DNA of 64,000 nt, from NCBI GenBank assembly GCA_965649165.1, contig CBFGJT010000004.1, positions 15,960-79,959 on the forward strand, read 5' to 3'. The position numbers and the translations under genes are program-made. This document shows positions 1,087 to 18,568 of the stretch, one piece after another; positions within the stretch are counted from its first letter, which is position 1, and every line of letters starts with the position of its first letter. Source of the DNA: a candidate division WOR-3 bacterium. Its GTDB lineage: Bacteria > Hydrothermota > Tepidihabitantia > Tepidihabitantales > Tepidihabitantaceae. The notes below the pieces were generated by a model. That model made no database searches and was not told where the DNA came from. It saw only the letters and a list, made by a program, of their open reading frames with translations.

Positions 1087-2009
1087 AGCGTGAAACTTTG
1101 TCTCTCTCTCCTGATCAGCGATTCGGCGATAAGATTGGTAGCCAGAGCGATGAGAAAGAGAATGAACCCCAGCGCAAACAGAGCGAAAAAGTGGATTGAG
1201 TTAAAGGTGGACTCGCCCAGCTCGATTGCGATCGTAGTGGTAATTGTCCGGATTGGATCAAAAAGTGAACGGGGAATGATGGGGGCATTGCCCGCCACCA
1301 TCAGTACCGCCATCGTCTCCCCGACCGCCCGGCCGAAGCCAAGCATCACCGCCGCGAGGATACCGGAACGGGCTGCGGGTAGAATCACCCGGATTGCAGT
1401 GGCCCAAGGTGATGCCCCGAGTGCATAGGCCGCCTCACGATAGGAGTGAGGCACAACCCGAAGCGCATCATCTGAGACCGAAATTATCGTCGGCAGCGAC
1501 ATTAGCGCCAGCAGCACTGAGGCGTTGAGTACATTAAGCCCAGAGGGAACATTGAAAAGCCGGGCAAGAAAAGGCCCGAGAACAAGTAACCCGAAGAAAC
1601 CGATCACCACTGAAGGAAATCCGGCAAACAGCTCCACCGCCATTTTCACTGCCACCCGCGCCCCGCCTTTCAGTCGTTCAGCAATAAAGACGGCACCGGC
1701 AATTCCCAACGGAATGGCAATCAGCAGTGCCAGCGCGGTGGTAATCAAACTACCGAGAAACAGCGGTAAGATGCCGTATTTAGGCTGACCATAGGCGTCC
1801 GGATTCCAGGAGGTGCCGAAGAGAAAACCGCCCAGTGTTAATGGCTGCGTAGTCGGGTCCTCAGGGTCAACCCCACCGGCCGGGATGAAGGCCCGAATGC
1901 CGTAAGCGAGCAGAAAAATCAAAATCCCGAGCAGCACCGCCGCTGCCAGCACCACGTTGGCCGAGAACAGAACCCGGACGCCATTGTCGGCAATTCTGCG
2001 CCGCTTCAT
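1083..2009 (-). CDS. pstC: Phosphate ABC transporter permease PstC
   Basis: 308 aa permease with a PstC-like signature (…EAAYALGASPWATAIRVILPAARSGILAAV…). Gene order is pstS-pstC-pstA-pstB. Confidence 0.85.
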   Translation of the reverse strand: MKRRRIADNGVRVLFSANVVLAAAVLLGILIFLLAYGIRAFIPAGGVDPEDPTTQPLTLGGFLFGTSWNPDAYGQPKYGILPLFLGSLITTALALLIAIPLGIAGAVFIAERLKGGARVAVKMAVELFAGFPSVVIGFFGLLVLGPFLARLFNVPSGLNVLNASVLLALMSLPTIISVSDDALRVVPHSYREAAYALGASPWATAIRVILPAARSGILAAVMLGFGRAVGETMAVLMVAGNAPIIPRSLFDPIRTITTTIAIELGESTFNSIHFFALFALGFILFLIALATNLIAESLIRRERQSFTL

Positions 2010-2039
2010 AGTCAGTCTGCTCTTTTACACTACATTACT

Positions 2040-2894
2040 CTATTGCAGAATCTGACTATTGCGTTCACTGTAATTCTGAGTGACCGGCACAAAACCCTCT
2101 TCCTCAACGATCTTCTGCCCCTGAGGACTCAGCTCAAACAGGATGAAATCGCGGACAAGCCCTTTCGGTCGACCGTTGGTGTACTGATAAAGCGGCCGGG
2201 TCAAAGGATAGGCACCGCTGCGCACCTTGGCTTCATCGGTTGGAGAGACATATGTCTCCCCTGACTTTTTAGCCACTGCCAGTGGCTTGATCCCCTCTAT
2301 CCCCTTGATGTAACCAAGGCCGACATAGCCGATACCGCCCTCGTCCGCCTTAACACCTTCTACGATCTGGGCATTGCCATTCATCTGCCGCATCGCTGGA
2401 GTGTATTCACCCTTCACTACCTCTTCGCGGAAGAAGACAAAAGTACCGGAATTGGGCTGACGGCCGTAAAGCACAATCTTCTTGTTTGGCCCGCCCACCT
2501 GTTTCCAATTAGTAATCTCACCCCGGTAGATGGCACCGATCTGCTCAATGGTCAGTTGATTCACCGGATTCCTGGCGTTCACAATTACCGAAAGACCGTC
2601 CAGCGCAATCACGATCTCAACCGGATTGACGCCATTGGCGCGTGCGGAGGATATCTCCTTGGACTTGATCTTTCTGGAGGCATTGGCGATATCAACCTCG
2701 CGGTTGGTGATCGCATTGATTCCCACTCCTGAACCACCACCGGTGATGGAAACGGTCGCATCCGGTCGGACTGCGGAAAAAGCTTCAGCCAGACGCTGAG
2801 TCAGATTCAGCATCGTATCTGAACCCTTGACAATAATCTCAGCACCAAAGAGCATGGTGCTGACCAGGGTTGCAAGCGTAAACAACTTCTTCAT
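2040..2894 (-). CDS. pstS: Phosphate-binding protein PstS (periplasmic substrate-binding)
   Basis: Signal peptide MKKLFTLATLVSTMLFGA, then …ITGGGSGVGINAI… and …TFVFF…, typical of the PstS family. An AGGAGG RBS sits upstream. Confidence 0.85.
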   Translation of the reverse strand: MKKLFTLATLVSTMLFGAEIIVKGSDTMLNLTQRLAEAFSAVRPDATVSITGGGSGVGINAITNREVDIANASRKIKSKEISSARANGVNPVEIVIALDGLSVIVNARNPVNQLTIEQIGAIYRGEITNWKQVGGPNKKIVLYGRQPNSGTFVFFREEVVKGEYTPAMRQMNGNAQIVEGVKADEGGIGYVGLGYIKGIEGIKPLAVAKKSGETYVSPTDEAKVRSGAYPLTRPLYQYTNGRPKGLVRDFILFELSPQGQKIVEEEGFVPVTQNYSERNSQILQ

Positions 2895-2924
2895 TCTATC
2901 CTCCTTTGTTCTTCAACGTTTATC

Positions 2925-4112
2925 TTACATCTGCGGTTTGGAAACAAGTGCACTCCACTCAAACCGCACCTGCGCCAGAAGCACATCGGTTGGCTTCAGC
3001 GCACTGTTTTTCGGTTGAGTCCGAGTCCAGGCAAACTGAAACTCAAGTCCCGGCTTGCCTTTCTCCCGGCGGATGAAATGATAATTAAATCCGGCACCAT
3101 ACCGGATAAAGCTCTTATCCCGGTTCAGCGGCATTGAATCGCCACTCTGCTCCCGCCGGTCCCAGATTGAAAACCGGCCAAAAATTTCCACAGTTCTACC
3201 TGGCAGTGTCACCACCGGAACCAGATCCACTCCGCTCATCCGGTAATCCTTCTTTTTCTCCACCAGAGTTGAATCAACGATGTTGCCGAGCGTATCCCGA
3301 TTAATCTGATAGTAGCTGAACTTCCTTGTATAGCTGTAACCAAGATATTCACCCAGAAGAGAAAACGGTCCGAACGCCAACTTGAACATCGGGGCATATG
3401 CCAGACGGTTGACATTCGCGGTATCGGCATTCATAAAGTATGTAACACCACCTTCAGTAACCCGGCCCTTACGATCGTTCTTATAGTGAGAGATATCGGA
3501 ACGATTAGTAAATACTGATCCACCAAGCATCAATCCCGGAAACGGTGTCAGCCGCAGATTTCCTGCTAATTCCGGTGAAGTATTAACATACTTGCCGGCA
3601 TATTTGTAACCTTCGCCGTTGTAAACCCCCAACTGGAATTCACCCAGTCCGTCAGGCAGAAAGCCGTTGAGTGTTACCCCGTAATCGGCGGAGGCGCAAA
3701 CCCCCTGATCATCCTCAAGAGCCTTTTCCGGATGGGTATAGTCCCAAGAGTAAATCAGACCAAAGTAGTGCTTCTGGAGACCGGCAGTGAGATTAAAATC
3801 CTTGATAAAAGGTACCGCCAGATCGGCATAAGCCTCCTTCAACCGTACCGTTGCCCCATCCGGATACTTGTCCAAGGAGAAAATATCCACTGTCATCTTG
3901 GTGAAGAAAGGCGGCGCCCACTGATGAGAGACCCGGATATAGCCCCGCTCCAGTGACAATCGGCTAACCGTAGGAGCGGTTATGTTAAAACTACTTGACT
4001 GATTAGTATAACGGAACCAGCCATTATGCTCAAATTCGGTCTCGCCCGGCTCCAGTGCGAAACCGACGACGGCGATTAACGCCAACATCGTAACTAACTT
4101 TTTGCGACTCAA
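2925..4112 (-). CDS. Outer-membrane porin, possibly a phosphate-selective porin of the OprO/OprP type. The annotated ORF reaches 4145, but the likely start is TTG at 4112, which gives MSRKKLVTMLALIAVVGFA.
   Basis: About 395 aa beta-rich protein with an N-terminal signal peptide and alternating hydrophobic residues. It is the first gene of the porin-pstSCAB operon. AAAGGAG lies 5 nt before the TTG. Confidence 0.45.
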   Translation of the reverse strand: MSRKKLVTMLALIAVVGFALEPGETEFEHNGWFRYTNQSSSFNITAPTVSRLSLERGYIRVSHQWAPPFFTKMTVDIFSLDKYPDGATVRLKEAYADLAVPFIKDFNLTAGLQKHYFGLIYSWDYTHPEKALEDDQGVCASADYGVTLNGFLPDGLGEFQLGVYNGEGYKYAGKYVNTSPELAGNLRLTPFPGLMLGGSVFTNRSDISHYKNDRKGRVTEGGVTYFMNADTANVNRLAYAPMFKLAFGPFSLLGEYLGYSYTRKFSYYQINRDTLGNIVDSTLVEKKKDYRMSGVDLVPVVTLPGRTVEIFGRFSIWDRREQSGDSMPLNRDKSFIRYGAGFNYHFIRREKGKPGLEFQFAWTRTQPKNSALKPTDVLLAQVRFEWSALVSKPQM

Positions 4113-4255
4113 GACAACTCCTTTCTTTTGCTTTTGCTTAAACACGCGTAAAAATCTTAAGTAACTAAAATAAATGCCTAATAAATTAATTGTTAAATTC
4201 TGGTTAACAGAGCTGAAGATTAAGTTGTTGTTTTAACTGTATGTTTTTAAAGGAA

Positions 4256-5035
4256 TTAACCGAATCGACCCGTGATATAGTTCTCGGTTTCCGGACGGTG
4301 GGGACGGGTAAAAATCCGGGATGTAGTGCCAAATTCAATCATTTTCCCCAGAAGCATGAAACCAGTAAAATCAGAAACCCGGGCCGCCTGCTGCATGTTA
4401 TGAGTGACGATTACAATCGTGTATTTTTCTTTGAGCTGCCGGAGCAGGTCTTCAATATGTAGTGTGGCAATCGGATCCAGTGCCGAACAGGGTTCGTCAA
4501 GTAGCAGTACCTCCGGCTCCACCGCCAGCATGCGGGCAATACACAGTCGCTGGCGCTGTTCGTCAGTGAGCCCGAGCGCATTCTGGTCAAGCCGGTCCTT
4601 CAGTTCGTCCCAGAGCCGGACCGCCTGCAAACTCCGTTCCACAATCTCGGTCAGCTTCTGCCGCTGGTTGACTCCGTGCACCCTGGGCCCATAGGCAATA
4701 TTGTCAAATACTGAAAGGGGAAACGCATTCGGCCGTTGAAAGACCATTCCCACCCGCTTGCGCAACTCCAGCACATTCAGCTGATAAATGTTTTTACCGT
4801 CAAGAATAATCTCCCCTCGGATTTTTGCTCCCTCGATCAACTCATTCATCCGATTGAAACTCCGCAGCAGAGTGGATTTACCACACCCGGAAGGACCGAT
4901 GATCGCCGTAATTGCGCGGACAGGAAATTCGATACTGACATCAATGACTGCCTGAAAACTGCCATAAAATACACTGAGATTTTTCGTTGCCAGCTTCACC
5001 GGAGGGTTAACCGATCCTGCCAGAGACATAGTCAT
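4256..5035 (-). CDS. pstB: Phosphate ABC transporter ATP-binding protein PstB, second of two tandem copies in the upstream operon. The probable start is M23 or M25 of the long ORF.
   Basis: …[50 protein letters not shown]…FQRPNAFPLSVFDNIAYGPRVHG…LSGGQ-like LTDEQRQRLCIARMLAVEPEVLLLDEPCSALDP is classic PstB. Confidence 0.85.
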   Translation of the reverse strand: MTMSLAGSVNPPVKLATKNLSVFYGSFQAVIDVSIEFPVRAITAIIGPSGCGKSTLLRSFNRMNELIEGAKIRGEIILDGKNIYQLNVLELRKRVGMVFQRPNAFPLSVFDNIAYGPRVHGVNQRQKLTEIVERSLQAVRLWDELKDRLDQNALGLTDEQRQRLCIARMLAVEPEVLLLDEPCSALDPIATLHIEDLLRQLKEKYTIVIVTHNMQQAARVSDFTGFMLLGKMIEFGTTSRIFTRPHRPETENYITGRFG

Positions 5036-5756
5036 CAGTCCTTTTGTCCCGGGGAGCGGTGAAGATCTGGGCGGTCGGTCCCAGTTCAACCAGTTCTCCA
5101 CTCAGAAAGAATGCGGTCCGGTCCGAGACTCGCGCCGCCTGTTTCACATTGTTGGTCACCAGAATAAATGTATAACTCTGCTTCAATTCGCGCATTGCCT
5201 GTTCAATCTGAGCGGTGGAAATTGGATCCAGCCCAGAACAGGGCTCATCCATCATCACCACCTCCGGTTCTACCGCCAGCGTCCGGGCAATGCAGAGCCG
5301 CTGCTGCTGTCCTCCAGAAAGGCGCAGTGCCGAACTGAACAGCCGGTCTTTCACCTCATCCCAGAGAAAGGCGGCGCGCAGACTCTTCTCCACAATTTCT
5401 GCGAGTCGGCGCATATTCCGGATTCCCTTCAGGCGCGGACCGTATGCCACATTGTCAAAGATCGTCCCGGGCAGTGGTATCGGCGTAGCAAAAATCATCC
5501 CGACCCGGCGCCTCAGAGTATCAATATCCCAATACCGGACGTCCCGGTTGTCCAAGAGCAGTTCACCGGTGCGAACAAAACCAGGTTGATTTTCAATCAG
5601 CCGATTAATACAGCGAAGAAAGGTAGTCTTGCCGGAATGTGCCGGACCGATAATCGCCAGAATTTCATTTGCCATCACGCTCAGACTGATGTCGCGCAGC
5701 ACCGGACTGCCATGAACCACCACATTCAGACCCCGCGTGGTGATTTTCTCCGGCAT
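5007..5756 (-). CDS. pstB: Phosphate ABC transporter ATP-binding protein PstB, first of two tandem copies
   Basis: …ILAIIGPAHSGKTTFLRCINRL…FATPIPLPGTIFDNVAYGPRLKG…LSGGQQQRLCIARTLAVEPEVVMMDEPCSGLDP. The start ATG shares one nucleotide with the pstA stop (TAATG). Confidence 0.85.
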   Translation of the reverse strand: MPEKITTRGLNVVVHGSPVLRDISLSVMANEILAIIGPAHSGKTTFLRCINRLIENQPGFVRTGELLLDNRDVRYWDIDTLRRRVGMIFATPIPLPGTIFDNVAYGPRLKGIRNMRRLAEIVEKSLRAAFLWDEVKDRLFSSALRLSGGQQQRLCIARTLAVEPEVVMMDEPCSGLDPISTAQIEQAMRELKQSYTFILVTNNVKQAARVSDRTAFFLSGELVELGPTAQIFTAPRDKRTDDYVSGRIG

Positions 5757-6574
5757 TACTTTAACCTCCTCGTCACTCGGAACATTAAAAGATAGGCAAT
5801 AGTGTTAATCAGCAGAATGACCACAATCAGCAGAAACGCCGTCCCGTATGCCCGTTTCATTGACAACCCTTCCCGCGCCAGAATGTAAAAATGCACCGCC
5901 ATTGTGCGCCCCGGATCCAGTATCGTCCGAGGTATCCTGAGCGATGATCCGGCAGTGAAAATAACCGCAGCAGTCTCTGCAACACTTCTGCCCAGTCCAA
6001 GAATCACACCCGTGAAAATTCCGGGCAGGGCGTTGGGGAGCACCACACGCATGATTGTCTGCGATTTGGTTCCCCCCAGCGAATAACTCACCTCCCGCAG
6101 CTGATAAGGAATTGCCCGGATCGCCTCCTCGCTCGTCCGGATAATCGTCGGCAGGATCATCACCGCCAGCGTCAACCCGCCGGCAAGAATTGACCAACCC
6201 AGTTTTAACCGGATGACAAACAGAATAAAACCGAACAGCCCGAAGATAATTGATGGCACACCTGCCAGCGCATCTGCTCCGAACCGGATAATTCGGGTCA
6301 GAACGGACTCCCGGGTATATTCGGTCAGATAAACCGCCGTACCCACTCCAAACGGAGTTGCTACCACTATTGCCACGACCGCAACATAAATTGTCGCAAT
6401 CAGCGTCGGCAGGATTCCGCCCTCCTTCCCCATCCGTTCGGGCATGGAAAAAAGAAATTCCGGTGTAATAACCGGTGCGCCCTTGGCGGTGATATAGCCG
6501 ATAATGAAGAAAAGAATCAGCAGGGTAACCAGCGTCAGAAGTGCTAACACCAGCCAAACCAGTCGCTGGGTCAT
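5756..6574 (-). CDS. pstA: Phosphate ABC transporter permease PstA (second operon). The six-frame ORF extends to 6892, but the homologous protein begins at MTQRLVWLVL (ATG 6574) or at the GTG overlapping the pstC stop.
   Basis: The permease core …GVPSIIFGLFGFILFV…SYSLGGTKSQTIMRVVLPNALPGI… belongs to the PstA family. The N-terminal 106 aa extension of the ORF is Gly/Asp-rich and non-homologous. Confidence 0.8.
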   Translation of the reverse strand: MTQRLVWLVLALLTLVTLLILFFIIGYITAKGAPVITPEFLFSMPERMGKEGGILPTLIATIYVAVVAIVVATPFGVGTAVYLTEYTRESVLTRIIRFGADALAGVPSIIFGLFGFILFVIRLKLGWSILAGGLTLAVMILPTIIRTSEEAIRAIPYQLREVSYSLGGTKSQTIMRVVLPNALPGIFTGVILGLGRSVAETAAVIFTAGSSLRIPRTILDPGRTMAVHFYILAREGLSMKRAYGTAFLLIVVILLINTIAYLLMFRVTRRLK

Positions 6575-6588
6575 TAATGGCCGAAAAA

Positions 6589-7428
6589 TCACTTCTGCTC
6601 CCTCATCGTCAGTAGTGCGATCGTATTCAACACCGCTATGATCACAAACAGCACCACGCCCGTTGCAAACAGCGCCCGCTGGTGGTCTCCGGCTGCATAA
6701 CCCATCTCCAGCGCGATGTTTGAGGTCAGTGTTCGCACCGGCACCAGTGGTGAAGTCGGGATCAACAGCGCATTGCCCGCAACCATAATCACCGCCATCG
6801 TTTCGCCAACCGCCCGGCCCATTGCCAGAATCAAACTGGCGATAATGCCGCTCCTTGCTGCCCGGAACTGCACCCGGTAAAGCGTCTGCCACCGGGTCGC
6901 GCCGAGTGCGAGCGAACCCTCCTTGTAACTCAGAGGGACCGCATTCAGTGCATCGAGTGAAATGGCAATCACTGTAGGCAGAATCATAATCCCCAGAATA
7001 ATCCCGGCAGCAAGCACCGAGAAACCGGGGCCGCCAAATGTCTGGCGAATCCAGGGCACAAGCACCACCACACCCATGAAACCGTAAACCACCGAAGGAA
7101 TCCCGGCAAGCAGTTCAATCAGCGGCTTCAGGATTCTGACACTCCACCGCGGAGCAAACTCCGCAAGGAACATTGTGCCCGCGAGCCCGAGCCCGCCACC
7201 AAAAACCAGTGCCAGCAAAGTCACTGCCAGCGAACCGAGAATCATAGGCAAAATCCCGAAACTACCCCGGGTTGGTGCCCAGCGCGTCGAGGCAATGAAA
7301 TTCTTCAGACCAACCTTGACAATCAGTGGCATGCCCTCAATGAAGATGAACAGCGCAATCAATAGTAGCGAACCAAGCGCGGACAGGGCAACTATCAGCA
7401 GTCCCTTCTCAATCAGCTTTTCTTTCAT
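6589..7428 (-). CDS. pstC: Phosphate ABC transporter permease PstC (second operon)
   Basis: 279 aa; …EGSLALGATRWQTLYRVQFRAARSGIIASL…; it follows pstS. Confidence 0.85.
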   Translation of the reverse strand: MKEKLIEKGLLIVALSALGSLLLIALFIFIEGMPLIVKVGLKNFIASTRWAPTRGSFGILPMILGSLAVTLLALVFGGGLGLAGTMFLAEFAPRWSVRILKPLIELLAGIPSVVYGFMGVVVLVPWIRQTFGGPGFSVLAAGIILGIMILPTVIAISLDALNAVPLSYKEGSLALGATRWQTLYRVQFRAARSGIIASLILAMGRAVGETMAVIMVAGNALLIPTSPLVPVRTLTSNIALEMGYAAGDHQRALFATGVVLFVIIAVLNTIALLTMREQK

Positions 7429-8249
7429 CAGCGCACCCGGATTAATCCCTCTTCAGCCAGCGCCGCCTGACCCTCCAGACTCAGCACGAAATCGATAAAT
7501 GACCGGACGAGCGGATTACTGTCACCAGCGACGACAAACAGAAAATCCCGTGCCAGCGGATACTGATGGCTCCGGATGGTTTCCTCGCTCGGCTGGACAC
7601 CATCAATTGCCAAGGTCTTCACCCGTTCATCCACCAGCCCGAACGAAATGTACCCGATTGCGGCTGGATCATTAGCAACGACCTCCCGCACTGCACCATT
7701 GGAATCCTGCACCAGTGCATCCGGGGCAAAATGCTCCCCCTCCATCACCTTCTCCTCAAAACTTGTTCTTGTCCCCGAGCCCTCCTCTCTGGTAATTACT
7801 GTAATCCTCAGATTTGCACCCCCAAACTCCCGCCAGTTCCGGACCGCACCGGAAAAAATCGCCCGTACCTGCTCACGGGTCAGACTCACTACTGGATTTG
7901 TTGGATGGACCACCAGCACAATACCATCAACCGCAATCGGAATTGCGGTCAATCCGGATTCACCAGCATTGAGATGCCGGGAACACATCCCGATATTACA
8001 GATCCGGTTCTGGACCGCTCTGACTCCGGCGGTTGATCCGCCCCCCTGAACATTGATTTCAACTCCGGGATGCCGTTGCTGATAAAGTTCTGCCAGTAGT
8101 TCGATAAACGGCTGGACTGAGGTAGAACCGGCAAGCACGAGCGCTTTCTTGCTACTACTCCGGCAGCCGGGCAACAGAAATAGAAATGAACACAGAAGGA
8201 TGATTACTCGAAAAATTTCCTCAGACACCGGGTGCAAAATGTTAATCAT
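7428..8249 (-). CDS. pstS: Phosphate-binding lipoprotein PstS (second operon)
   Basis: Lipobox LLPGC in the signal peptide, then …VLAGSTSVQPFIELLAELYQQRHPGVEINVQGGGSTAGV…, typical of PstS/PBP-family proteins. Confidence 0.8.
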   Translation of the reverse strand: MINILHPVSEEIFRVIILLCSFLFLLPGCRSSSKKALVLAGSTSVQPFIELLAELYQQRHPGVEINVQGGGSTAGVRAVQNRICNIGMCSRHLNAGESGLTAIPIAVDGIVLVVHPTNPVVSLTREQVRAIFSGAVRNWREFGGANLRITVITREEGSGTRTSFEEKVMEGEHFAPDALVQDSNGAVREVVANDPAAIGYISFGLVDERVKTLAIDGVQPSEETIRSHQYPLARDFLFVVAGDSNPLVRSFIDFVLSLEGQAALAEEGLIRVR

Positions 8250-8651: not shown

Positions 8652-9266
8652 ATGAAGCATACAGGACATTTTCGACAGACTGTTCTGCCGATTATCCTTG
8701 CTGCTGCGCTCGGTTTTAGCGCACCAGCGGACCGGTGGCATGCGCTGCGTAACCGGTATCTGGGGCTCAGGTCGCTTGCCGGCAGTTTTACCGAGACGAT
8801 CAAACCGGCTGAGAACACCGGACAAAAACCTCTGATCTTCAAGGGCAGTTTTCTTTTTCAGCTTCCTTACAACTTCCGGCTTGAAGTACAGGAACCGGTG
8901 CGTCAGACAATTGTCGGCAACGATTCGATAGTCTGGTTCTATTTCCCCGACGAACAACGGGCAGTGCGCCAGCAGCGAAATCAGCCTGTGCCTTTACTTG
9001 CATTTGTTGAACCGCTGCTGGACACCAACAGCCGGATCACCGAGAAGGGAACCGGAATAATTATGATTGAAAATGAAAACAGTTTCCTCTCCCCTCTGCT
9101 TTTGGAATTGGACCCCAATGGCACAACCGTCGCCGGACTTTCCTTTACCGACGAACTGGGCAACCAGTGCCGGTTTCTGCTCGCCCGTCAGCGCTGGAAC
9201 CCACCGGTCAGCCGGAAAAGTTTCCGGTTCATTCCGCCGAAGGGGGTAACCGTTGAGTTCCAGTAA
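8652..9266 (+). CDS. LolA-like outer-membrane lipoprotein carrier / sorting protein
   Basis: 204 aa with a cleavable signal peptide. The body is beta-rich and ends …NQCRFLLARQRWNPPVSRKSFRFIPPKGVTVEF, matching the LolA/LppX fold family. Confidence 0.5.
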   Translation: MKHTGHFRQTVLPIILAAALGFSAPADRWHALRNRYLGLRSLAGSFTETIKPAENTGQKPLIFKGSFLFQLPYNFRLEVQEPVRQTIVGNDSIVWFYFPDEQRAVRQQRNQPVPLLAFVEPLLDTNSRITEKGTGIIMIENENSFLSPLLLELDPNGTTVAGLSFTDELGNQCRFLLARQRWNPPVSRKSFRFIPPKGVTVEFQ

Positions 9267-10943: not shown

Positions 10944-10992
10944 AGTAAAGTAAAAAATTGACTGGCAGTATCTCCTTTCTAAAATTGATATT

Positions 10993-11781
10993 ATGATGAA
11001 AGATACGCTTGGGATAGTTACCGTGCTGGCTGCCGGCGGTCTGCTTTTATCCTGCTCTGATGCGCCCCTGATTGAACGTGCGGCAAACCGGATTGTGCTC
11101 GTGGAACTGTTCTCTACTCCTATCGATGAATGAGCCTACTGTGCGTCCGCGGTGCGGGCGCTGGACAGCCTGAGGGGAAGCTATGGTGATTCAATGGCTT
11201 TTGTGATCTACTACGATTCGGAACTTCTGCCTGAACTTTCCTCACCGGCAGGCAAGGTGCGGGCTGATTGGTACGGCGCGGGTGGGGAACGACCACTGGC
11301 ATTCTTTGACGGCACCATCCGCTCACCTCAGATTACGCTGCCTGACTCCTTTTATCCGGTTTATCGGGACATGATTGACGCCGCCCGGGCCAGAAAAACG
11401 ATGATGGAAATGAAAATTGATAGCGCTGTCATCGACTCCTCCTGGCTCACCGTGCGAGTCGTGATTACTCCTACCGATTCTTCTGCCGACACGATTACCA
11501 CCCTGAGCCTGGTGGCAATCGTCTTTGAAGACAGCATACCCTATTATTCAGTCCTGAGAGGCGATACCTTCTATTCACCAATGACCGTGCGCACGGTCAT
11601 TGGTGACAGCTTCGGGATCCCGCTCCGTGTCCGGTTCGGACAGGATTTTGATACTGTTATCAGCACACCGGTTCCGGAATGGAACCCGAACCGCATCGGC
11701 ATAGCGGTAACGGTCCAGAATCTTGCCAGCCGGGCTGTGCTACAAACCGCTGCCAAATGGCGGATAAAACAGGAGGATTGA
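10993..11781 (+). CDS. Candidate selenoprotein: a secreted lipoprotein with a thioredoxin-like U-x-x-C motif, translated through the in-frame TGA at 11131-11133. The ORF track shows only the downstream part, 11152-11781.
   Basis: ATG at 10993 begins a lipoprotein signal peptide (MMKDTLGIVTVLAAGGLLLSC). It reads in frame through TGA into …RIVLVELFSTPIDE-U-AYCASAVRALDSL…. The 3' part has no RBS or signal peptide of its own. A paralog at 17496-18518 has the TGA at the same aligned position. Confidence 0.55.
11143..11161 (+). promoter_or_regulatory. GC-rich hairpin 9 nt downstream of the in-frame UGA; a candidate bacterial SECIS-like element
   Basis: GCGUCCG-CGGUG-CGGGCGC forms a 7 bp stem (one G·U pair) with a 5 nt apical loop containing GGU. 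Confidence 0.3.
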
Positions 11782-12314
11782 TGAAAAAAGTCCTTCCTTT
11801 TGCAGTTGTCTTTCTGTTCTTTACTGTCTTCGGTACCGAAAAAAAGTACGAACCGGCACCGGATTTTACCCTCAGAGATATCAACGGCAATGAAGTAACA
11901 CTCCACGAACTCCTGAAACACGGTCCGGTTTATCTCGAATGTTGGGATCTGTCCTGCGTCAACTGCATTGCCGAACTTGATGCCCTGCTGCCGGTATACG
12001 ATTCACTGAAAGACCGAGGACTGCAGATTGTCGCCCTCTCAGTGGATAAGCCGGCGGACGAGAACCGGGTCCGGGCATTTGTTCGCGCCAAGAAATGGCC
12101 CTATATCGTCCTGCTTGATCAGCAGCAGAGAGTAAAAAAGGCATACAACATTATCATCAAACCCACCGCCTATCTCATCAACATGAACGGCGAAATCGTC
12201 TACACCCATATCGGCTATAAGAAGGGCGACGAAAAACGGATTGCCCAGGAAATGGTAAAATGGCTGCCGCCCCAAGACTCGGTTCCGCCTGAGCAACCGC
12301 CTCAGGGAAAATAG
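11781..12314 (+). CDS. TlpA/ResA-like periplasmic thiol-disulfide oxidoreductase (thioredoxin fold)
   Basis: Signal peptide MKKVLPFAVVFLFFTVFG, then …PDFTLRDINGNEVTLHELLKHGPVYLECWDLSCVNCIAELDAL… with a C-x-x-C active site. AGGAGG lies 4 nt upstream, and the ATG overlaps the upstream TGA stop (TGATG). Confidence 0.7.
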   Translation: MKKVLPFAVVFLFFTVFGTEKKYEPAPDFTLRDINGNEVTLHELLKHGPVYLECWDLSCVNCIAELDALLPVYDSLKDRGLQIVALSVDKPADENRVRAFVRAKKWPYIVLLDQQQRVKKAYNIIIKPTAYLINMNGEIVYTHIGYKKGDEKRIAQEMVKWLPPQDSVPPEQPPQGK

Positions 12315-12324
12315 GCACGCAAAA

Positions 12325-13785
12325 GTGGGCATAGGCAGTTTCTTAGTTCTGAGCTCGGTCTTCGGTGCCAATCTGACAATCCAGGGGGTCAACCGGGCAG
12401 AATTCTGGGCTTACCAGCAGGACTGGGCAACCCATTATGAGGACAAGCTGGAGCTCAATGCCCATTACAGCGATTTCGATGCCGAACTGGGCGTGCTGTG
12501 GTTTGAACCGTCCAAACACGAACCCTCAGTGCGCAAACCGCTCCATCTGCTTGACTACTCAATCGGTTATAACCCGGAAGAACTTGAAGTCCGGCTCGGC
12601 AGATTCTACGTTACATTCGGCCAGGGGCTTACACTAAGCAGCGGTGCTGATGATGATTTCCGGCATTACAAGAGTCTACACGGTCTGTTCGGCAAACTTA
12701 AACTGCCACTGCGCAGTGAGCTAACGCTACTTGGTGGCAGGCTCCGGGATGTCTTTTTTCAGGAAAAAACCTACAAAATAATGAACGAACTGGACACTAC
12801 TGACCAGGTACTTGGTGCTGAGCTGACCATTCGACCGATCCAACTTTTCGGTCTGGGCACCCGTTATGTCCGCATTAACCGGGAGGTCGATCCGACCGCA
12901 CGGGCATTCACCGAACTCTTTGGTGGTGACTGCCGGCTGGATATCGGACCTGTCTCTGCTGGAGCGGAATTTGCCTGGCGGCTGGGGACAAAACCGGGAA
13001 TCGGCGGCCGGGAAACCGGCACGGGCTACATTCTGAATCTGGGCACCGCACTTGCCGGTTTTTCCATCCTCGCACAGTATGTAAACTACCTCCGGCTAGG
13101 TTTTCCTCCAGGCACTTATCACTACAACGACCCCCCCACTCCGATTAAATCCGGCGTCTCAATTAACCGGGGCGTGGATGAACAGGGGTTCGGAGTTCAG
13201 ATCTCAGGAACGATACCTAACGGGCTCTACCTTGAAGCTGATGTGGGTCGTCTTTTTGTCCATGATGACACCAGCGCCGGTGTGTTTGAGGGGGAATTTA
13301 AAACACGGCAATCACTGGGAACAAACTGGACATTTGAACTCAAATTCAACCATATGCTCCAGCGAAACATCGAACTGGGAACTTACGAACGGACTACCGA
13401 CCGTCCGACAATCCTTGTGAACTACCTCACCGGACCCCACACCTTTACTCTCGAGGTGGAACTGGGCTGGGTAACCGAACTGCCCACTGATACCACTCAT
13501 GGCAGCCGCTGGCAGTATCACGAACCCCTGGTTTCTGTCAGTTACGGGCTGGGAGAAAAATGGCTTTTTACCATCGGCTGGCAGGGCGTGGACAGAGATT
13601 CACTCAAGCGTTACGACAACCAGACCTCCTGGCCTGTGTTTGAAACTGTCTATAATCTTAATGAACGGAATGTTCTGCGGCTGCGTATCGGAGCAGAAAA
13701 AGGTGGTTATACCTGCTCAGGTGGTGTGTGCCGCTATGAGGCGCCGTTCCGGGGTATGAAACTGCAACTGATCAGCCGGATATGA
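12325..13785 (+). CDS. Hypothetical secreted beta-rich protein, possibly an outer-membrane beta-barrel
   Basis: 486 aa with alternating hydrophobic/polar segments and Gly/Tyr-rich turns. No recognisable catalytic motif. It follows the thioredoxin gene at a 10 nt gap. Confidence 0.35.
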   Translation: MGIGSFLVLSSVFGANLTIQGVNRAEFWAYQQDWATHYEDKLELNAHYSDFDAELGVLWFEPSKHEPSVRKPLHLLDYSIGYNPEELEVRLGRFYVTFGQGLTLSSGADDDFRHYKSLHGLFGKLKLPLRSELTLLGGRLRDVFFQEKTYKIMNELDTTDQVLGAELTIRPIQLFGLGTRYVRINREVDPTARAFTELFGGDCRLDIGPVSAGAEFAWRLGTKPGIGGRETGTGYILNLGTALAGFSILAQYVNYLRLGFPPGTYHYNDPPTPIKSGVSINRGVDEQGFGVQISGTIPNGLYLEADVGRLFVHDDTSAGVFEGEFKTRQSLGTNWTFELKFNHMLQRNIELGTYERTTDRPTILVNYLTGPHTFTLEVELGWVTELPTDTTHGSRWQYHEPLVSVSYGLGEKWLFTIGWQGVDRDSLKRYDNQTSWPVFETVYNLNERNVLRLRIGAEKGGYTCSGGVCRYEAPFRGMKLQLISRI

Positions 13786-13895
13786 GGCGGAAACTGGTCT
13801 TTGTTCTGCTGGCAATCTGCGGGGCCGCACTTGTAGTGCTGGGCATCGGAATGGGCATGCTCTCAATCATTCACGGCTTTGCTTCCCAGATATGA
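13782..13895 (+). CDS. Small hydrophobic membrane peptide (37 aa), translationally coupled by ATGA to the preceding gene
   Basis: MRRKLVFVLLAICGAALVVLGIGMGMLSIIHGFASQI has a single predicted TM helix. The start ATG overlaps the upstream TGA. Confidence 0.25.
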   Translation: MRRKLVFVLLAICGAALVVLGIGMGMLSIIHGFASQI

Positions 13896-13928: not shown

Positions 13929-15209
13929 ATGGTGAAACGACGCATCGCCCCGCATCGCATCGGTCAGATAATCGGCACCGTGCTCCTGAACGGTTATATC
14001 CTTGCCTATCTTCAGAATAAAGTCCTTTATTCCGGAATACTCAAATCGGTACCTGAACCCGTGCTCAACTGTTACGGCGGCCCCCTTTCAGTATTTGCCT
14101 GCCCGCTTGGCTCTTTTCAACAAATCATCGGTATGAAAGGGGTTACCTGGTGGCAGAATATACCCTGGGTGATTCTGGGGCTGTTCATAATAATCGGCGC
14201 ATCTGTCGGTCGGGCGGCTTGCGGCTGGATATGCCCGTTCGGATTGTGGCAGGACCTGCTTTACAAGATTAAAATCGGACCGCGGGCAAAACTGAGCCGA
14301 TGGGTTACCTTCTTGACTATTGCCGGGATCGGCATACTGACTTTAACTCTGCTTGCCACCTTCATCAAAATCTCATTCTGGAAAGGACTGCTACTCGGGT
14401 GGCTGCCGTTTATGGCGTTGCTGCTCTACAGTACAATCAAGGGAAAACTCTCGCCTCCCCAGCGTTTCTCGGTTGCCAGCATGCTGCTGGGAATCCTTCT
14501 CGGTCTCTTAATCATATTCAAGCATGGAGTTAACACCGGCATCGCAACTGGCGTAGTCAACATGGCCGTCTTCAGCCTGCTCGGTGGGAAACGGTCACTG
14601 CTCATCGCCGCTCCAGCCGGTTTTATCATCAGCCTTACCGGTAAATCGGTAATACTCGGCCCTTTTGCCGGAGGGGAAATCGGCTTGCTTTTTATCCTGA
14701 TTGCGGTTTTAACCATTCTGCTCTTTGAAGAAAAATTTAAACTATTCCTCCCGGCAACTGCCCTCAAATATGCCTTTCTCGTCATCGTTGCCGGCATCGC
14801 CGCCTACTTCACTGCCGAACCTTGGTTCTGCAAACTGTGTCCTCAGGGCACCCTCGAAGCGGGTCTCCCGCTTGTGCTGTGGGACCCGGTCCAGGGTCTG
14901 CGGGCACTTGTCGGCTGGCTCTTTTATCTGAAAATTGCCATTCTTTTATTTGTCTTCTGGGCATCAATTACCGTCAAACGCCCCTTCTGCCGCATGGTCT
15001 GCCCGATCGGTGCGATTTATGCCCTGTTCAACAAAGCCAGTATGATGCGGATGGAGCTGAACGGACAAAATTGCAGTAAATGCGGAGCCTGCCGCCGGGT
15101 CTGTCCCATGGACATCGAGCCGTTCCAGGATCCGAATCAGGCAGAATGCATCCGGTGTTTTGAGTGTGTCTGGATCTGTTCGCGAAAATCGTTGAAAATT
15201 ACTTTCTGA
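13929..15209 (+). CDS. Polytopic membrane protein with 4Fe-4S ferredoxin-type clusters, of the NapH/MauN/CcoG-like polyferredoxin family
   Basis: Repeated cysteine motifs CGWICPFG, CKLCPQG, CRMVCPIG, CSKCGACRRVCP and CIRCFECVWIC are interspersed with TM helices. Confidence 0.6.
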   Translation: MVKRRIAPHRIGQIIGTVLLNGYILAYLQNKVLYSGILKSVPEPVLNCYGGPLSVFACPLGSFQQIIGMKGVTWWQNIPWVILGLFIIIGASVGRAACGWICPFGLWQDLLYKIKIGPRAKLSRWVTFLTIAGIGILTLTLLATFIKISFWKGLLLGWLPFMALLLYSTIKGKLSPPQRFSVASMLLGILLGLLIIFKHGVNTGIATGVVNMAVFSLLGGKRSLLIAAPAGFIISLTGKSVILGPFAGGEIGLLFILIAVLTILLFEEKFKLFLPATALKYAFLVIVAGIAAYFTAEPWFCKLCPQGTLEAGLPLVLWDPVQGLRALVGWLFYLKIAILLFVFWASITVKRPFCRMVCPIGAIYALFNKASMMRMELNGQNCSKCGACRRVCPMDIEPFQDPNQAECIRCFECVWICSRKSLKITF

Positions 15210-15210
15210 A

Positions 15211-16089
15211 GTGCGCAAACCCGAATGGCTCAGATTCCGGCTGCCCGCCGGCCCGGAATTTATCCGGGTAAATGAAGTCCTTAGGAAATATAACTTGAAT
15301 ACTGTCTGCAGTTCTGCCCGCTGTCCAAATCTGGCTGAATGCTGGAACCGGGGGACAGCAACAGTTTTGCTTCTCGGCAACACCTGCACCCGGCATTGTC
15401 GTTTCTGCGCCGTTACCACCAGTAACCCTCATGGTCAGGTAGATAATTCTGAACCCGAACGGGTGAAAGGCGCAGTCCTGGAGCTGGGCCTTAAATATGT
15501 CGTCCTGACTTCGGTCGATCGTGATGACCTGCCTGACCTTGGTGCCGGTATCTTTACCCGCACCGTGCAGCTGCTGAAAAAGTCAAACCCGGGAATCGCG
15601 GTTGAGGTGCTGGTTCCTGATTTCCAGGGGAAAAAGGAGTTGATTCAGCAGGTGCTTGCTGCCGGTCCGGATGTGTTTGCCCACAACCTTGAGACCGTGG
15701 AGCGGTTGACCCCTGCTGTCCGCGACCCGCGGGCAGATTACCGCCAGTCGCTTTCGGTCCTCCAGTTGGCAAAAAGGCTGACACCGACAATCAAAACCAA
15801 AAGCGGTCTAATGGTCGGACTGGGCGAAACCGAAGAGGAAGTCATCCAGACGCTCGCTGACCTAAAATCAGCAGGATGTGATATTGTGACCATTGGCCAG
15901 TATCTCCAGCCGGACCGACGCTGCCTGCCAGTTGCTCGTTACTACACCCGAGAGGAGCTTCAGAAACTGTCAGCGTATGCCCGCACCATCGGCATCCCGC
16001 AAACCATTGCTGCCCCGCTGGTCCGAAGCTCCTATCTGGCTGAGGAACTACTCAGGACAGATATCAACCCTACCCCTACACAGATTTGA
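15211..16089 (+). CDS. lipA: Lipoyl synthase LipA
   Basis: MRKPEWLR…, N-terminal auxiliary-cluster cysteines (C…CPN…C) and radical-SAM motif CTRHCRFC, then …LTSVDRDDLPD… and …DIVTIGQYLQP…, typical of LipA. Confidence 0.85.
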   Translation: MRKPEWLRFRLPAGPEFIRVNEVLRKYNLNTVCSSARCPNLAECWNRGTATVLLLGNTCTRHCRFCAVTTSNPHGQVDNSEPERVKGAVLELGLKYVVLTSVDRDDLPDLGAGIFTRTVQLLKKSNPGIAVEVLVPDFQGKKELIQQVLAAGPDVFAHNLETVERLTPAVRDPRADYRQSLSVLQLAKRLTPTIKTKSGLMVGLGETEEEVIQTLADLKSAGCDIVTIGQYLQPDRRCLPVARYYTREELQKLSAYARTIGIPQTIAAPLVRSSYLAEELLRTDINPTPTQI

Positions 16090-17453
16090 ACCGTCTCTCC
16101 ACCTGCGAAATCGAAAAAGGGTTGAAAATTTCGATCATTGAAGGCACCTTTGCCACTCTCTATACAACCCTTGCCGGCGGTATGTTTCTTGCCGGACTAG
16201 CTCTGCACCTCGGGGCAAATTCATTTCAGATTGCACTTCTATCTGCCATCCCGGCGCTGGTCAGTGGTTTCAGTTTTCTTGCCGGCTACCTGGTGCGCTG
16301 GGTCGGTGCTCGAAAACCGCTGGTTCTCTGGACCGCAGGTGTCGGCCGATCAGTCTATGTACTGATTGTCCTCGCTTTGCTACTCCGCTTCCGGCTGCGG
16401 ATTGAACTTTTCCTGCTGATTGTCGGCATCTCCGCCGTGCTGTTGGCAATCGCCGGCACGGTCTGGACATCCTGGATCAGTGACCTCGTGCCTGAGGAAC
16501 ACCGCGGTCGTTTCTTTGGTGTCCGGAATGCAATTCTCAATTTCAGCGGTGTGCTGGTTGCATTTGGTGCGGGCCGGAGTATGGACTATCTTAAAGCCCG
16601 GGGGCACGAAACCACCGGCTACCTGCTGGCATTTACACTCGCAGTGCTGTTCGGCATGGTCTCAACGCTGCTCCTGCGCCGGCAGCCCGAACCCGAACCG
16701 AGACTCCTGCCAGGACCCTCGTTCCGGGAAATTTTTTTTGGCCCACTCCAGGAACCGCAGTTCCGGCGGCTGACAATCTTCCTCGCAATCTGGTTCCTCA
16801 CCGGCACGCTCGCATCACCCTTTTACCTCGTCCATCTCTTGAAAAATCTCCGTTTCAGCTTTACCGAAGTGGCAATTTATTCCATGATTGGTGGAGTAAT
16901 CGGCGTCCTGTTCCAACTGTTCTGGGGCCGAGCGATCGATCGATTCGGCTCCCGACCGGTTACTGTGCTCAACTTTGCCCTCGTGGGAATAATGCCTTTT
17001 CTCTGGCTCTTCGCCACCCCCCGCTTCCGCCTGCCAATCTGGATTGATGGCGTCCTCAATGGTGCGGTCTGGACCGGCGCCAGCCTCGGCCTCTGGAACC
17101 TGCTGCTTGACCTTGCCGATAATCCTGCCCGCAAAGAGAGCTACTTTGCAATCTACAGTGTCGTCACCGGTCTCGGTGCCTTTATTGCCTCCATTATTGC
17201 CGGCACCATCGCCCAGCTGATCTCCAGCTTCCATTTGAAAATCCTGGGCATCGATTTTTATAATTACGACGTTATGTTCCTTGCTGCCGGCGTCGCCCGG
17301 TTTACCTGTCTGCCGCTACTGCTGAAGGTCCGGGAGCCGGGCAGTAAGCCGGTGCGGCACACAATTCAAGAACTAACCAATCTGGCACTGTGGCGCCTGA
17401 ATGCCGGTAAGGATGTCCTGCTGCAGGCACTGGGAATCAAAAATCAGGATTGA
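16086..17453 (+). CDS. MFS-family transporter
   Basis: 455 aa with 12 predicted TM helices. The start overlaps the lipA stop. Confidence 0.6.
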   Translation: MNRLSTCEIEKGLKISIIEGTFATLYTTLAGGMFLAGLALHLGANSFQIALLSAIPALVSGFSFLAGYLVRWVGARKPLVLWTAGVGRSVYVLIVLALLLRFRLRIELFLLIVGISAVLLAIAGTVWTSWISDLVPEEHRGRFFGVRNAILNFSGVLVAFGAGRSMDYLKARGHETTGYLLAFTLAVLFGMVSTLLLRRQPEPEPRLLPGPSFREIFFGPLQEPQFRRLTIFLAIWFLTGTLASPFYLVHLLKNLRFSFTEVAIYSMIGGVIGVLFQLFWGRAIDRFGSRPVTVLNFALVGIMPFLWLFATPRFRLPIWIDGVLNGAVWTGASLGLWNLLLDLADNPARKESYFAIYSVVTGLGAFIASIIAGTIAQLISSFHLKILGIDFYNYDVMFLAAGVARFTCLPLLLKVREPGSKPVRHTIQELTNLALWRLNAGKDVLLQALGIKNQD

Positions 17454-17495
17454 CATCTTAAGGGTAATAGTTATAATTGAATAAAGGAGGCAAAC

Positions 17496-18518
17496 GTGCT
17501 GAAGCAACTGTTCGTCCTTTCCCTGGTGCTCACCGCTACTCTGGCAGTGGGTTACCAGCGAATCGTCGTCCTGGAGGAAGCCTATTCTGAAGGCTGAGCC
17601 AGCTGCGCACCTGCCAGTCGGGCAGTTGATCAGATCACCTACGATTATGCCGGTTATGTTGTTGCCGTCGAGTGGCATGTATCATCCTCATATCCCCTGT
17701 ACTCTGCCGAAGGCCGCGGTAAATGGTTCATGTATCCCGGGCCCTACAATGGATCCTATGCAACCCCCTGGCTCTGGGTTGACGGCCGGCAGCGCGGTTA
17801 CAACTACAACCTCTGGGCAAGCTATGTTGCGGCCCAGATCGGCATTCCGACTCCGGTTCAGATCACCCTGACCGGCAATTACAACCAGACCACCCGCGAG
17901 GGCACAATCAAAGCGCTTATTCAGAATGATTCGACCGACGAGCTGACAATGCGTGTTTCGGTTGTAGTAACTGAAGACTCAATTTACTACTCCGCACCCA
18001 ATGGTGACCAGTGGCATAATCATGTCTGCCGTGATTACATTCCTAATCAGTACGGCACGGTAATTACCGTTCCTGCCGGTAGTATTGATTCGGTAATTCA
18101 ACCCTTTACGATCGCCAGCACCTGGAATGAACAACGCTGTAAAATTGTGGTTTATGCCCAGAGTACAACAATGGTACCATCCGACTCATCCTATCCTGCC
18201 TACCAAGGAGCAGAAATTGCAATCCTTGACCTCGTCGGCGTCCGTGAAGGTGTACCGGCTGAAGGCATGGCAGCACATGCACTGCCTCTTGTCAATCCGA
18301 CTTCAGCCCGGCCCGTTTTTGCCGTGACCGCCAACACCGGAGCGCAGTATCAGCTTTACATCTACACGTTTGACGGCCGCATATCCCATGCTCAAAATGG
18401 CACAATATCAGGTGACTGCAGAATTGCTGTCAACAGCCGACTTTCCCGCGGCATCTACCTCTATCGGCTTAAGATTAATGGGACTGAGTTCAAAGGCAAA
18501 CTGATCGTCACCGATTAA
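17496..18518 (+). CDS. Candidate selenoprotein paralog: a secreted U-x-x-C protein with a T9SS C-terminal sorting domain, translated through the in-frame TGA at 17595-17597. The ORF track lists only 17730-18518.
   Basis: GTG start 5 nt after AAAGGAGG gives the signal peptide VLKQLFVLSLVLTATLAVG, in frame with …RIVVLEEAYSEG-U-ASCAPASRAVDQI…. This is homologous before and after the TGA to the 10993-11781 gene (also …SVVVTEDSIYYS… vs …VAIVFEDSIPYYS…, WNEQR vs WNPNR). The C-terminus …YLYRLKINGTEFKGKLIVTD is a Por/T9SS sorting domain. Confidence 0.55.
17611..17625 (+). promoter_or_regulatory. Hairpin 13 nt downstream of the in-frame UGA; a candidate SECIS-like element
   Basis: CUGCC-AGUCG-GGCAG forms a 5 bp GC-rich stem with a 5 nt loop containing GU. 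Confidence 0.25.
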
Positions 18519-18533
18519 TAATCAGAAAAACGG

Positions 18534-18568
18534 GCGGGGCGATTGTCAATCGCCCCGCTTCTCTTTTT
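18534..18568. terminator. Bidirectional rho-independent terminator between convergent genes
   Basis: GCGGGGCGATTG-T-CAATCGCCCCGC is a perfect inverted repeat followed by CTTCTCTTTTT. Confidence 0.6.

Follow-up and report, generated by a model that had tools for sequence, protein, structure and literature searches.

We describe a conserved gene cluster in a 64,000-nucleotide stretch of DNA (hereafter the window) from a candidate division WOR-3 bacterium, a member of a phylum that is uncultured and for the most part anaerobic or thermophilic. Four closely spaced genes (g1 to g4) encode a selenocysteine (Sec)-containing lipoprotein, a TlpA-like thiol-disulfide oxidoreductase, an outer-membrane beta-barrel of the DUF6029 family and a micropeptide of the membrane. 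On balance, and with considerable reserve, we favour the view that these genes make up the 5′ half of a single transcription unit for an envelope thiol/selenol redox pathway that is conserved across WOR-3. A preliminary description of the same DNA had proposed that the four genes form one tightly coupled envelope module. That proposal stands in so far as a conserved unit exists, but the unit does not consist of four genes: its core includes a fifth gene, g5, and it runs past position 13895.

A conserved five-gene core

The four open reading frames (ORFs) and their junctions are exactly as they were placed in the preliminary description. The stop codon of g1 is the TGA at 11779-11781, the last base of which is also the A of the g2 start codon (TGATG), and an AGGAGG sequence at 11771-11776 lies 4 nt 5′ of that start. 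The TAG stop codon of g2 is followed after 10 nt by the GTG start codon of g3, and g3 and g4 overlap in an ATGA sequence, with g4 starting at 13782. Close spacing continues beyond these genes, with 33 nt between g4 and g5 (a NapH-like membrane protein gene), 1 nt between g5 and the lipoyl synthase gene lipA (g6), and -4 nt between lipA and a gene for a major facilitator superfamily (MFS) transporter (g7).

A scan with a DUF6029 alignment, using one genome per species, recovered 37 loci, all from WOR-3, which were then searched by tblastn with the window proteins (homologous loci from related genomes are labelled L001 to L054). Wherever the contig was long enough, the order g1-g2-g3-(g4)-g5-lipA-MFS was found in these 37 species-level loci and, for the core, also in L001 to L012. 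Within the WOR-3 loci, identity to the window proteins was 25-87% for g1, which is the fastest evolving, 57-96% for g2 and 49-94% for g3. In the operon context g1 was never seen without g2, and its stop codon overlaps the g2 start codon in several other loci as well as in the window. Further, g5 was always present after g3 or g4 in the loci examined. Co-occurrence of the genes in relatives, which the preliminary description had named as a check, was thereby borne out in all evaluable loci. The flanks of the cluster are variable. The gene 5′ of g1 encodes RimO only in the three closest relatives, and HSP20 (L007 and L008) or other proteins elsewhere. Genes 3′ of the core also vary, and include lipA-MFS, an enolase gene and a GltD-like gene.

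Searching with distant DUF6029 representatives gave access to a sister clade, whose members include 'TA06 bacterium DG_78' and two WOR-3 chromosomes that are nearly complete. Sister-clade proteins are 30% (g1), 42% (g2), 37% (g3) and 42-54% (g5) identical to those of the window, and the loci L050, L052 and L053/54 keep the order Sec lipoprotein, TlpA-like protein, DUF6029 protein, micropeptide, NapH-like protein. Such recurrence goes well beyond what chance would produce. The lipA gene follows g5 in the window's clade, and both it and the MFS gene are absent from the sister clade. Their membership of the core was rejected for that reason. Judged by gene order, the conserved core is therefore the five genes g1 to g5, with lipA and the MFS gene as a lineage-specific extension. 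We found no published description of a neighbourhood of Sec lipoprotein, TlpA, DUF6029, micropeptide and NapH genes. Literature searches likewise returned no work that pairs Omp28 with a selenoprotein, and nothing relevant for WOR-3 and selenocysteine.

The lead gene as a selenoprotein gene

Comparative sequence evidence identifies g1 as a bacterial selenoprotein, a lipoprotein with a Sec-x-x-Cys thioredoxin-type active site; its earlier listing as a candidate U-x-x-C selenoprotein was thus well founded. When read through its in-frame TGA, g1 has a lipobox (LLLSC, followed directly by SDAP) and the motif VLVELFSTPIDE-U-AYC (IDE-U-AYC). Thirty species-representative WOR-3 loci hold the N-terminus of g1. 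With reading frames extended in the DNA, a TGA was found at the identical codon in all 30 of them and in the sister-clade loci L050, L052 and L053, giving 33 loci. The lipobox, the beta1 strand and the reading frame are kept 5′ of the TGA in g1 orthologues, while the residues around it vary (DE-U-AYC, KD-U-PFC, TT-U-GYC, AG-U-GNC and TN-U-GYC). The sole locus without a match to the g1 TGA is L040, where a run of Ns covers the region.

Homology searches with g1 retrieved 19 close relatives. All of these come from metagenome bins of WOR-3 and are annotated as proteins of 194-210 residues that start after the TGA. The same searches also found two full-length Cys homologues, P0020 and P0021, which are 248 residues long, carry the Pfam domain Omp28 (PF11551) and are 32-33% identical to g1. 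The first Cys of their CxxC motif (FARCVYCP) aligns with the TGA of g1 (IDE-U-AYCA). The relatedness of g1 to Omp28, traced through these two PF11551-carrying homologues, is real but distant. The genes for P0020 and P0021 (L004 5307-5609; L005 1675-1977) adjoin neither a TlpA nor a DUF6029 gene. Their neighbours are genes for proteins with the C-terminal domain (CTD) of the type IX secretion system (T9SS) and a ferredoxin-thioredoxin-reductase beta-like gene.

A hairpin resembling a selenocysteine insertion sequence (SECIS) follows the TGA. Its 8-bp stem begins 9 nt after the UGA and its apical loop has the form G-G/U-N. Among 31 sequences, 98.4% of cells are paired, and compensatory changes occur in 5 of the 8 pairs (43 cells). 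The covariation score was reached by none of 500 shuffles, and slid registers fall to 28-60% pairing. In the sister clade, g1 has the motif U-P-[FI]-C and the same hairpin at the same position. Because g1 and g3 themselves end at an ordinary TGA stop codon, genome-wide recoding of TGA was rejected as an explanation.

A selA gene (TIGR00474, 528 bits, cut-off 268) is present at L051 2957-4384, 1.3 kb 5′ of the TlpA-like gene of the homologous cluster, in a 'TA06 DG_78'-like genome where it sits among Sec-containing Omp28-like genes. The same locus also holds a possible further selenoprotein family. The gene at L051 4617-5582 encodes a secreted domain of about 185 residues without a Pfam match, and reads through a TGA (K-W-C-S-G-U-G-S) into a T9SS sorting domain. 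Paralogues occur at L050 2609-3160 and 4732-5295, L052 4125-4691 and 6118-6651, and L053 1377-1940, and are annotated as ending at or near the position of this TGA.

Transcription signals

A sigma-70-like promoter lies directly 5′ of g1. The -35 sequence TTGAC and a TAnnAT -10 box occur with the same spacing in six loci, including L007 and L008, where HSP20 rather than RimO is encoded upstream, and one of the six has a terminator hairpin just 5′ of the promoter. The ATG of g1 follows the -10 box after 7 nt, without a Shine-Dalgarno sequence. The operon mRNA may consequently be leaderless or nearly so, with a leader that is very short or absent.

Separate promoters or terminators between the genes, which the preliminary description had named as evidence against a single operon, did not appear in a pattern scan. 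No intergenic promoter-like site was found on the + strand between 10993 and 17234, and the two + strand promoter-like sites that precede the promoter of g8 lie inside the coding sequences of g5 (14246) and the MFS gene (17235). Similarly, there is no convincing internal terminator between 10993 and 17453, where the scan found only short, weak intragenic hairpins; the regional count of 14 is close to the 11.8 expected from shuffles. Co-transcription of g1 to g7 is supported computationally by the conserved promoter and the lack of an internal terminator.

The other core proteins

The g2 protein scores above the Pfam cut-offs for AhpC-TSA (75 bits) and Redoxin (61 bits), and has a cleavable-looking signal peptide, in agreement with the TlpA/ResA-type label that it had been given. 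Its scores fall below the curated NCBIfam cut-offs for ResA (82 bits, cut-off 170), DsbE (32, cut-off 123) and TlpA (25, cut-off 230). The active-site motif CVNC is present in 30 of the 32 loci in which this part of g2 is readable, in the context W-D-L-P/S-C-V-N-C. The sister-clade active site is W-A-L-W-C-K/T-M-C.

For g3, the label of outer-membrane-like protein agrees with a beta-barrel in the AlphaFold model, and can now be refined to a DUF6029 barrel (Pfam PF19494, 59.9 bits, cut-off 27). The modelled barrel has about 24 strands and no plug domain (predicted local distance difference test, pLDDT, 78; predicted template modelling score, pTM, 0.73). Structurally, it is best matched by the 24-strand usher pores PapC/FimD, MtrB, TonB-dependent transporters and LptD, with template modelling (TM) scores of about 0.5. 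At the level of the predicted model, this is a generic similarity among large barrels. The C-terminal hairpin Y-T-C-S-G-G-V-C-R is invariant, and homologues have an F-type beta-signal. The signature G-G-x-x-C-S-G-G-V-C-R...F is common to distant DUF6029 representatives, with both Cys residues kept. Strand parity in the model would place the C-x4-C hairpin in the last extracellular loop, and several long loops are strongly conserved. Our literature search on DUF6029 returned a single paper. This widespread family of no known function (682 representative clusters) hereby gains, within WOR-3 and its sister clade, the first consistent genomic context that could be found for it.

The micropeptide g4, previously noted as a 37-residue transmembrane peptide, proved to be a real gene. 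At least 26 loci have, at the corresponding position, an ORF of 36-38 codons with the tail I-H-(R/G)-F-A-(A/S)-Q-I-stop. The peptide has one transmembrane helix and no Pfam match. Its positional counterpart in the sister clade has 42-48 residues (100 as called in L051) and a tail with a CxxC motif, V-M-C-L-S-C-M-G.

The g5 protein matches Pfam Fer4_5 (44.6 bits) and, below cut-off, NapH/MauN (TIGR02163, 56 bits, cut-off 213). Weak matches to CcoG/RdxA/FixG (TIGR02745, E 1.9e-5) and Fer4_18 were also found. The protein contains the motifs CGWICP, CRMVCP, CSKCGACRRVCP and CIRCFECVWIC. Overall there are four C...C-P-x-G motifs, two of them of the NapH type (C-x3-C-P). The protein ends in a 2x[4Fe-4S] ferredoxin domain, whose location must be cytoplasmic. 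In two sister-clade loci, the 3′ end of the NapH-like gene is overlapped by a gene for a GltD-like NAD(P)-binding Fe-S flavoprotein of 524-528 residues (L051 8861-10435 and L053 10417-12003), an arrangement that hints at electron supply from NAD(P)H.

A second selenoprotein and the Omp28 family

Downstream of the MFS gene, g8 encodes a second selenoprotein, with a signal peptide and a T9SS sorting domain at its C-terminus. Its Omp28/HBP35-like domain contains SEG-U-ASC, and the motif H-N-H-V-C-R-D-Y is conserved. The gene is bracketed by a promoter-like site of its own and by a terminator that closes the cluster (Table 1). The match to the sorting domain is marginal (TIGR04183, 23.9 bits, cut-off 23); the g8-family profile matches the CTD of PorU with an E value of 7.5e-5. 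In at least 14 loci, homologues of g8 with the same in-frame TGA lie 3′ of the MFS gene (in L040, of lipA), and some form tandem pairs. Sister-clade homologues are found 5′ of the core.

A hairpin is also found about 17-35 nt after the UGA of the g8 family (window 17611-17625, with equivalents in L013 to L049), in the form CUGCC-AGUCG-GGCAG or CCAGCA-GUG-UGCUGG. RNAalifold gave no consensus for the region after the g8 UGA, because these two registers belong to different clades. In addition, a gene for a peptidase of the C25 (gingipain) family is located at window positions 40106-41731. Together with the Por_Secre_tail proteins, this suggests that the source organism has an active T9SS.

The g8 protein scores 55 and 44 bits against the Omp28 models NF033782 and NF045500 (cut-offs 150 and 200). 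Searched against the PDB, the g8-family profile matches HBP35 (5Y1A, E 5.6e-4) and Omp28 (2R2C, E 0.017), as well as a DUF1223-type thioredoxin-like protein and T9SS sorting domains. By sequence, the PDB held nothing meaningful for the g1 profile and nothing for g8 as a single sequence. Both proteins fall far short of NF045500 (19 bits for g1 and 44 bits for g8, cut-off 200), and they are therefore separate subfamilies. In every public WOR-3 genome examined, these two unannotated selenoprotein subfamilies are recorded as 'hypothetical proteins' cut at the TGA. Recognising their Sec read-through is thus a concrete annotation fix.

Feature coordinates and the wider window

Table 1. Positions of the genes, recoding elements and transcription signals discussed in the text. 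Positions refer to the window unless a locus is named.
Feature	Position	Strand	Description
g1	10993..11781	+	Sec lipoprotein, 262 aa when read through; Omp28/HBP35-like thioredoxin-type N-domain (U-A-Y-C), then beta-rich domain
In-frame UGA of g1, read as selenocysteine	11131..11133	+	single in-frame TGA
SECIS-like hairpin in g1	11143..11161	+	8-bp stem 11143-11150 / 11154-11161, 3-nt G-first loop
g2	11781..12314	+	periplasmic TlpA/ResA-like thiol-disulfide oxidoreductase, 177 aa, signal peptide, W-D-L-S-C-V-N-C
g3	12325..13785	+	DUF6029 outer-membrane beta-barrel, 486 aa, GTG start
g4	13782..13895	+	single-pass membrane peptide, 37 aa (MRRK-TM-...IHGFASQI)
g5	13929..15209	+	polytopic NapH/MauN/CcoG-like membrane protein, 426 aa; conserved-core member
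g6	15211..16089	+	lipoyl synthase LipA; TIGR00510 357 bits, above cut-off 310
g7	16086..17453	+	MFS transporter; lineage-specific extension
g8	17496..18518	+	second selenoprotein, 340 aa, UGA 17595-17597
Operon promoter	10958..10985	+	sigma-70-like, TTGACT-16-TAAAAT, 10/12 matches
g8 promoter-like site	17450..17477	+	perfect consensus TTGACA-16-TATAAT; pattern scan
Intrinsic terminator	18532..18560	.	strong, bidirectional; 13-bp stem, 8 GC pairs, T-run
Sister-clade micropeptides	L050 9720-9866, L052 9493-9633, L053 9511-9639, L051 7781-8083		between DUF6029 and NapH-like gene

A Pfam scan of about 30 further ORFs in the window found housekeeping functions, including Pst transport, purH, glycosyltransferases, ValRS and the C25 peptidase, and neither sel genes nor CcdA. 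A B12-dependent mutase-like gene, which was outside that scan, is also present in the window. The minus strand at 202-8249 holds two phosphate-type ABC transporter sets (PBP_like_2, BPD_transp_1 permeases and ABC ATPase). Directly 5′ of the operon are genes for LolA (8652-9266), a 4HBT thioesterase and a RimO/MiaB-type methylthiotransferase. The only tRNA that Rfam and ARAGORN found in the window is a tRNA-Phe.

A proposed redox relay and its alternatives

We propose that the TlpA-like g2 would serve as a dedicated periplasmic reductant that keeps the selenenylsulfide of g1 reduced, and possibly also that of the T9SS-displayed g8. That g2 reduces the Sec/Cys pair of g1 is plausible, given their strict co-occurrence, their translational coupling and the behaviour of TlpA/ResA proteins elsewhere. 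Reducing power might enter via the NapH-like g5 and the micropeptide g4, because in sister lineages a GltD-like gene overlaps the NapH-like gene and the micropeptide has a CxxC tail. The g3 barrel may act as the outer-membrane partner, which would house g1, expose it or give it access to its substrate. By analogy with HBP35, the end substrate would most likely be an oxidant at the cell surface or outside the cell, or else a nutrient in need of reduction. Sec is kept in every examined locus with the operon context, where no Cys orthologue was seen, and this argues for an envelope chemistry that requires selenium. If such a relay exists, it would supply reducing power to the periplasm and surface of a diderm cell by a route that model organisms are not known to use.

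The relay could conceivably extend further, into a haem-free thiol/selenol electron conduit across the whole envelope, analogous in its logic to MtrCAB but with selenoproteins replacing cytochromes. Electrons would then pass from NAD(P)H or the quinol pool through g5 and the micropeptide to g2, and on to the Sec lipoprotein in or through g3. As a last step, g1 would serve either an extracellular substrate or the Sec paralogue displayed by the T9SS. We consider this extended version improbable.

Several observations weigh against a redox relay of the kind proposed. No selA, selB, selD or tRNA-Sec was found in the window by Rfam, ARAGORN and Pfam scans, and neither tRNA-Sec nor selB or selD was seen in about 40 loci. 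The usual electron donor of TlpA-type proteins is CcdA or DsbD. Pfam scans found neither in the window; either could be encoded elsewhere in the genome, and g5 would then be unnecessary as a donor. Moreover, reduction of a thioredoxin-like protein is not known from the NapH family. The lipA and MFS genes have no evident place in the redox model, and the evidence for co-transcription is computational. The link to Omp28 is also distant: g1 scores only 17 and 19 bits against NF033782 and NF045500 and has no Pfam match, and although the top Foldseek matches of the P0020 model are 5y1a and 2r2c, that model is of low confidence (pLDDT 52).

Among the alternatives, it is possible, although we doubt it, that the genes are co-transcribed but g2 serves another client, either the Cys pair of the DUF6029 barrel while it crosses the periplasm or Cys motifs in g4 and g5. 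In that case g1 and g8 would be independent HBP35-type surface oxidoreductases or ligand binders, for example in haem or metal acquisition. The family-wide invariance of the DUF6029 C-S-G-G-V-C pair and the CxxC tail of the sister-clade micropeptide are consistent with such clients, just as the haemin binding of HBP35, alongside its thioredoxin activity, and the resemblance of the g8 motif H-N-H-V-C-R-D-Y to a ligand site are consistent with ligand-binding roles. The predicted extracellular position of C-x4-C in g3, however, suggests a structural rather than a cycling disulfide, and both the overlap of the g1 stop with the g2 start and the constant presence of g2 beside g1 favour g1 as the client. 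The cluster could also handle copper or another thiophilic metal or metalloid, with TlpA reducing a Sco-like g1, g5 acting as a metal reductase and the barrel importing the ion. In Bradyrhizobium, TlpA reduces ScoI and CoxB, while CcoG is a Cu(II) reductase that is accompanied by a small peptide, CcoS, and g5 does show the weak CcoG/RdxA/FixG and Fer4_18 matches noted above. These CcoG matches are nevertheless far below cut-off and are outscored by NapH/MauN, g1 has U-x-x-C instead of the Sco signature C-x3-C...H, and Pfam scans of the window found no copper ATPase or oxidase genes nearby. We regard a metal-handling role as unlikely.

Gene order might alternatively have been inherited without any shared function, with DUF6029 acting as a Wzi-like porin for polysaccharide export. 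Some Wzi-barrel homologues are similar to DUF6029 by HHpred, for which a polysaccharide role has been suggested (PMC9603273), and glycosyltransferase genes occur elsewhere in the window. Yet the core of five genes is still intact at 30-40% identity, where the flanks on both sides have been replaced, and start/stop overlaps are retained. In addition, no OPX, Wzx or Wzy genes lie beside the cluster in any locus examined, and the g3 model has about 24 strands compared with the 18 of Wzi. This makes mere inheritance of gene order very unlikely. Finally, the TGA of g1 could be a true stop codon, leaving a 46-residue lipopeptide ORF and a separate 209-residue protein, or a pseudogene. All public annotations follow this interpretation by starting the gene after the TGA, and it would fit the lack of Sec machinery in the window. 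It is effectively refuted by the TGA at one codon in 33 loci with an intact frame, lipobox and beta1 strand upstream, by the alignment of that codon with a catalytic Cys and the covarying hairpin, by the selA gene that adjoins the cluster in L051, and by the same feature in the g8 family of the same cluster.

Comparison with known systems

TlpA/ResA/CcmG-type proteins are extracytoplasmic thiol-disulfide reductases, which act as dedicated periplasmic reductants with dedicated clients. The g2 protein resembles them in its thioredoxin fold, signal peptide and CxxC motif, and in the position of its gene beside a presumptive client and partner membrane proteins. It differs in its unusual active-site context (W-D-L-P-C-V-N-C) and in falling below the curated cut-offs for ResA, TlpA and DsbE. 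Further, the client presumed for it is a selenoprotein, and the protein encoded nearby is of the NapH-like Fe-S type instead of CcdA or DsbD.

Like members of the NapH/MauN/NosR/CcoG group, the g5 protein has several transmembrane helices, carries C-x3-C-P motifs and ends in a 2x[4Fe-4S] domain. Unlike these, it is below all curated cut-offs, has a micropeptide partner and is not adjoined by nap, nos or cco genes. It also has extra CxxC-P motifs, which simple topology reasoning would place on the periplasmic side. With its large barrel of about 24 strands, which lacks a plug and is always encoded with a lipoprotein, g3 recalls MtrAB, LptDE and the usher pores. The TM scores are only about 0.5, however, there are no haem proteins, and insertion of the lipoprotein into g3 is conjectural.

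The closest parallels to the Sec proteins are HBP35 and Omp28 (PF11551; 5Y1A, 2R2C), with which they share a redox pair spaced by two residues and probably the architecture of a thioredoxin-type N-domain followed by a beta-sandwich domain. HBP35 of Porphyromonas gingivalis is a T9SS-anchored surface protein whose CxxC motif gives it thioredoxin activity and which also binds haemin (PMC2907840). Omp28 and g1 would represent the lipoprotein form of this architecture, and HBP35 and g8 the form with a T9SS CTD. In contrast to HBP35 and Omp28, g1 and g8 have Sec at the position of the first Cys, and both are below the NCBIfam cut-offs. A TlpA-DUF6029-NapH-like neighbourhood has not been reported for HBP35.

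The model NF045500, 'Omp28-related selenoprotein', corresponds to the 'Hypothetical protein GOS_C' with a predicted UxxC motif in Table 1 of a 2026 review (PMC13188914). The text of that review mentions neither Omp28 nor WOR-3 and refers to TlpA only for a UGC-containing TlpA-family selenoprotein, and we found nothing in it that resembles the operon context described here. GOS_C resembles g1 and g8 in being an Omp28-related U-x-x-C protein that is predicted to be a selenoprotein and has no known function. Taken together, g1 to g5 and g8 would represent an extracytoplasmic thiol-disulfide relay, a known kind of system, equipped with new subfamilies of a predicted selenoprotein family.

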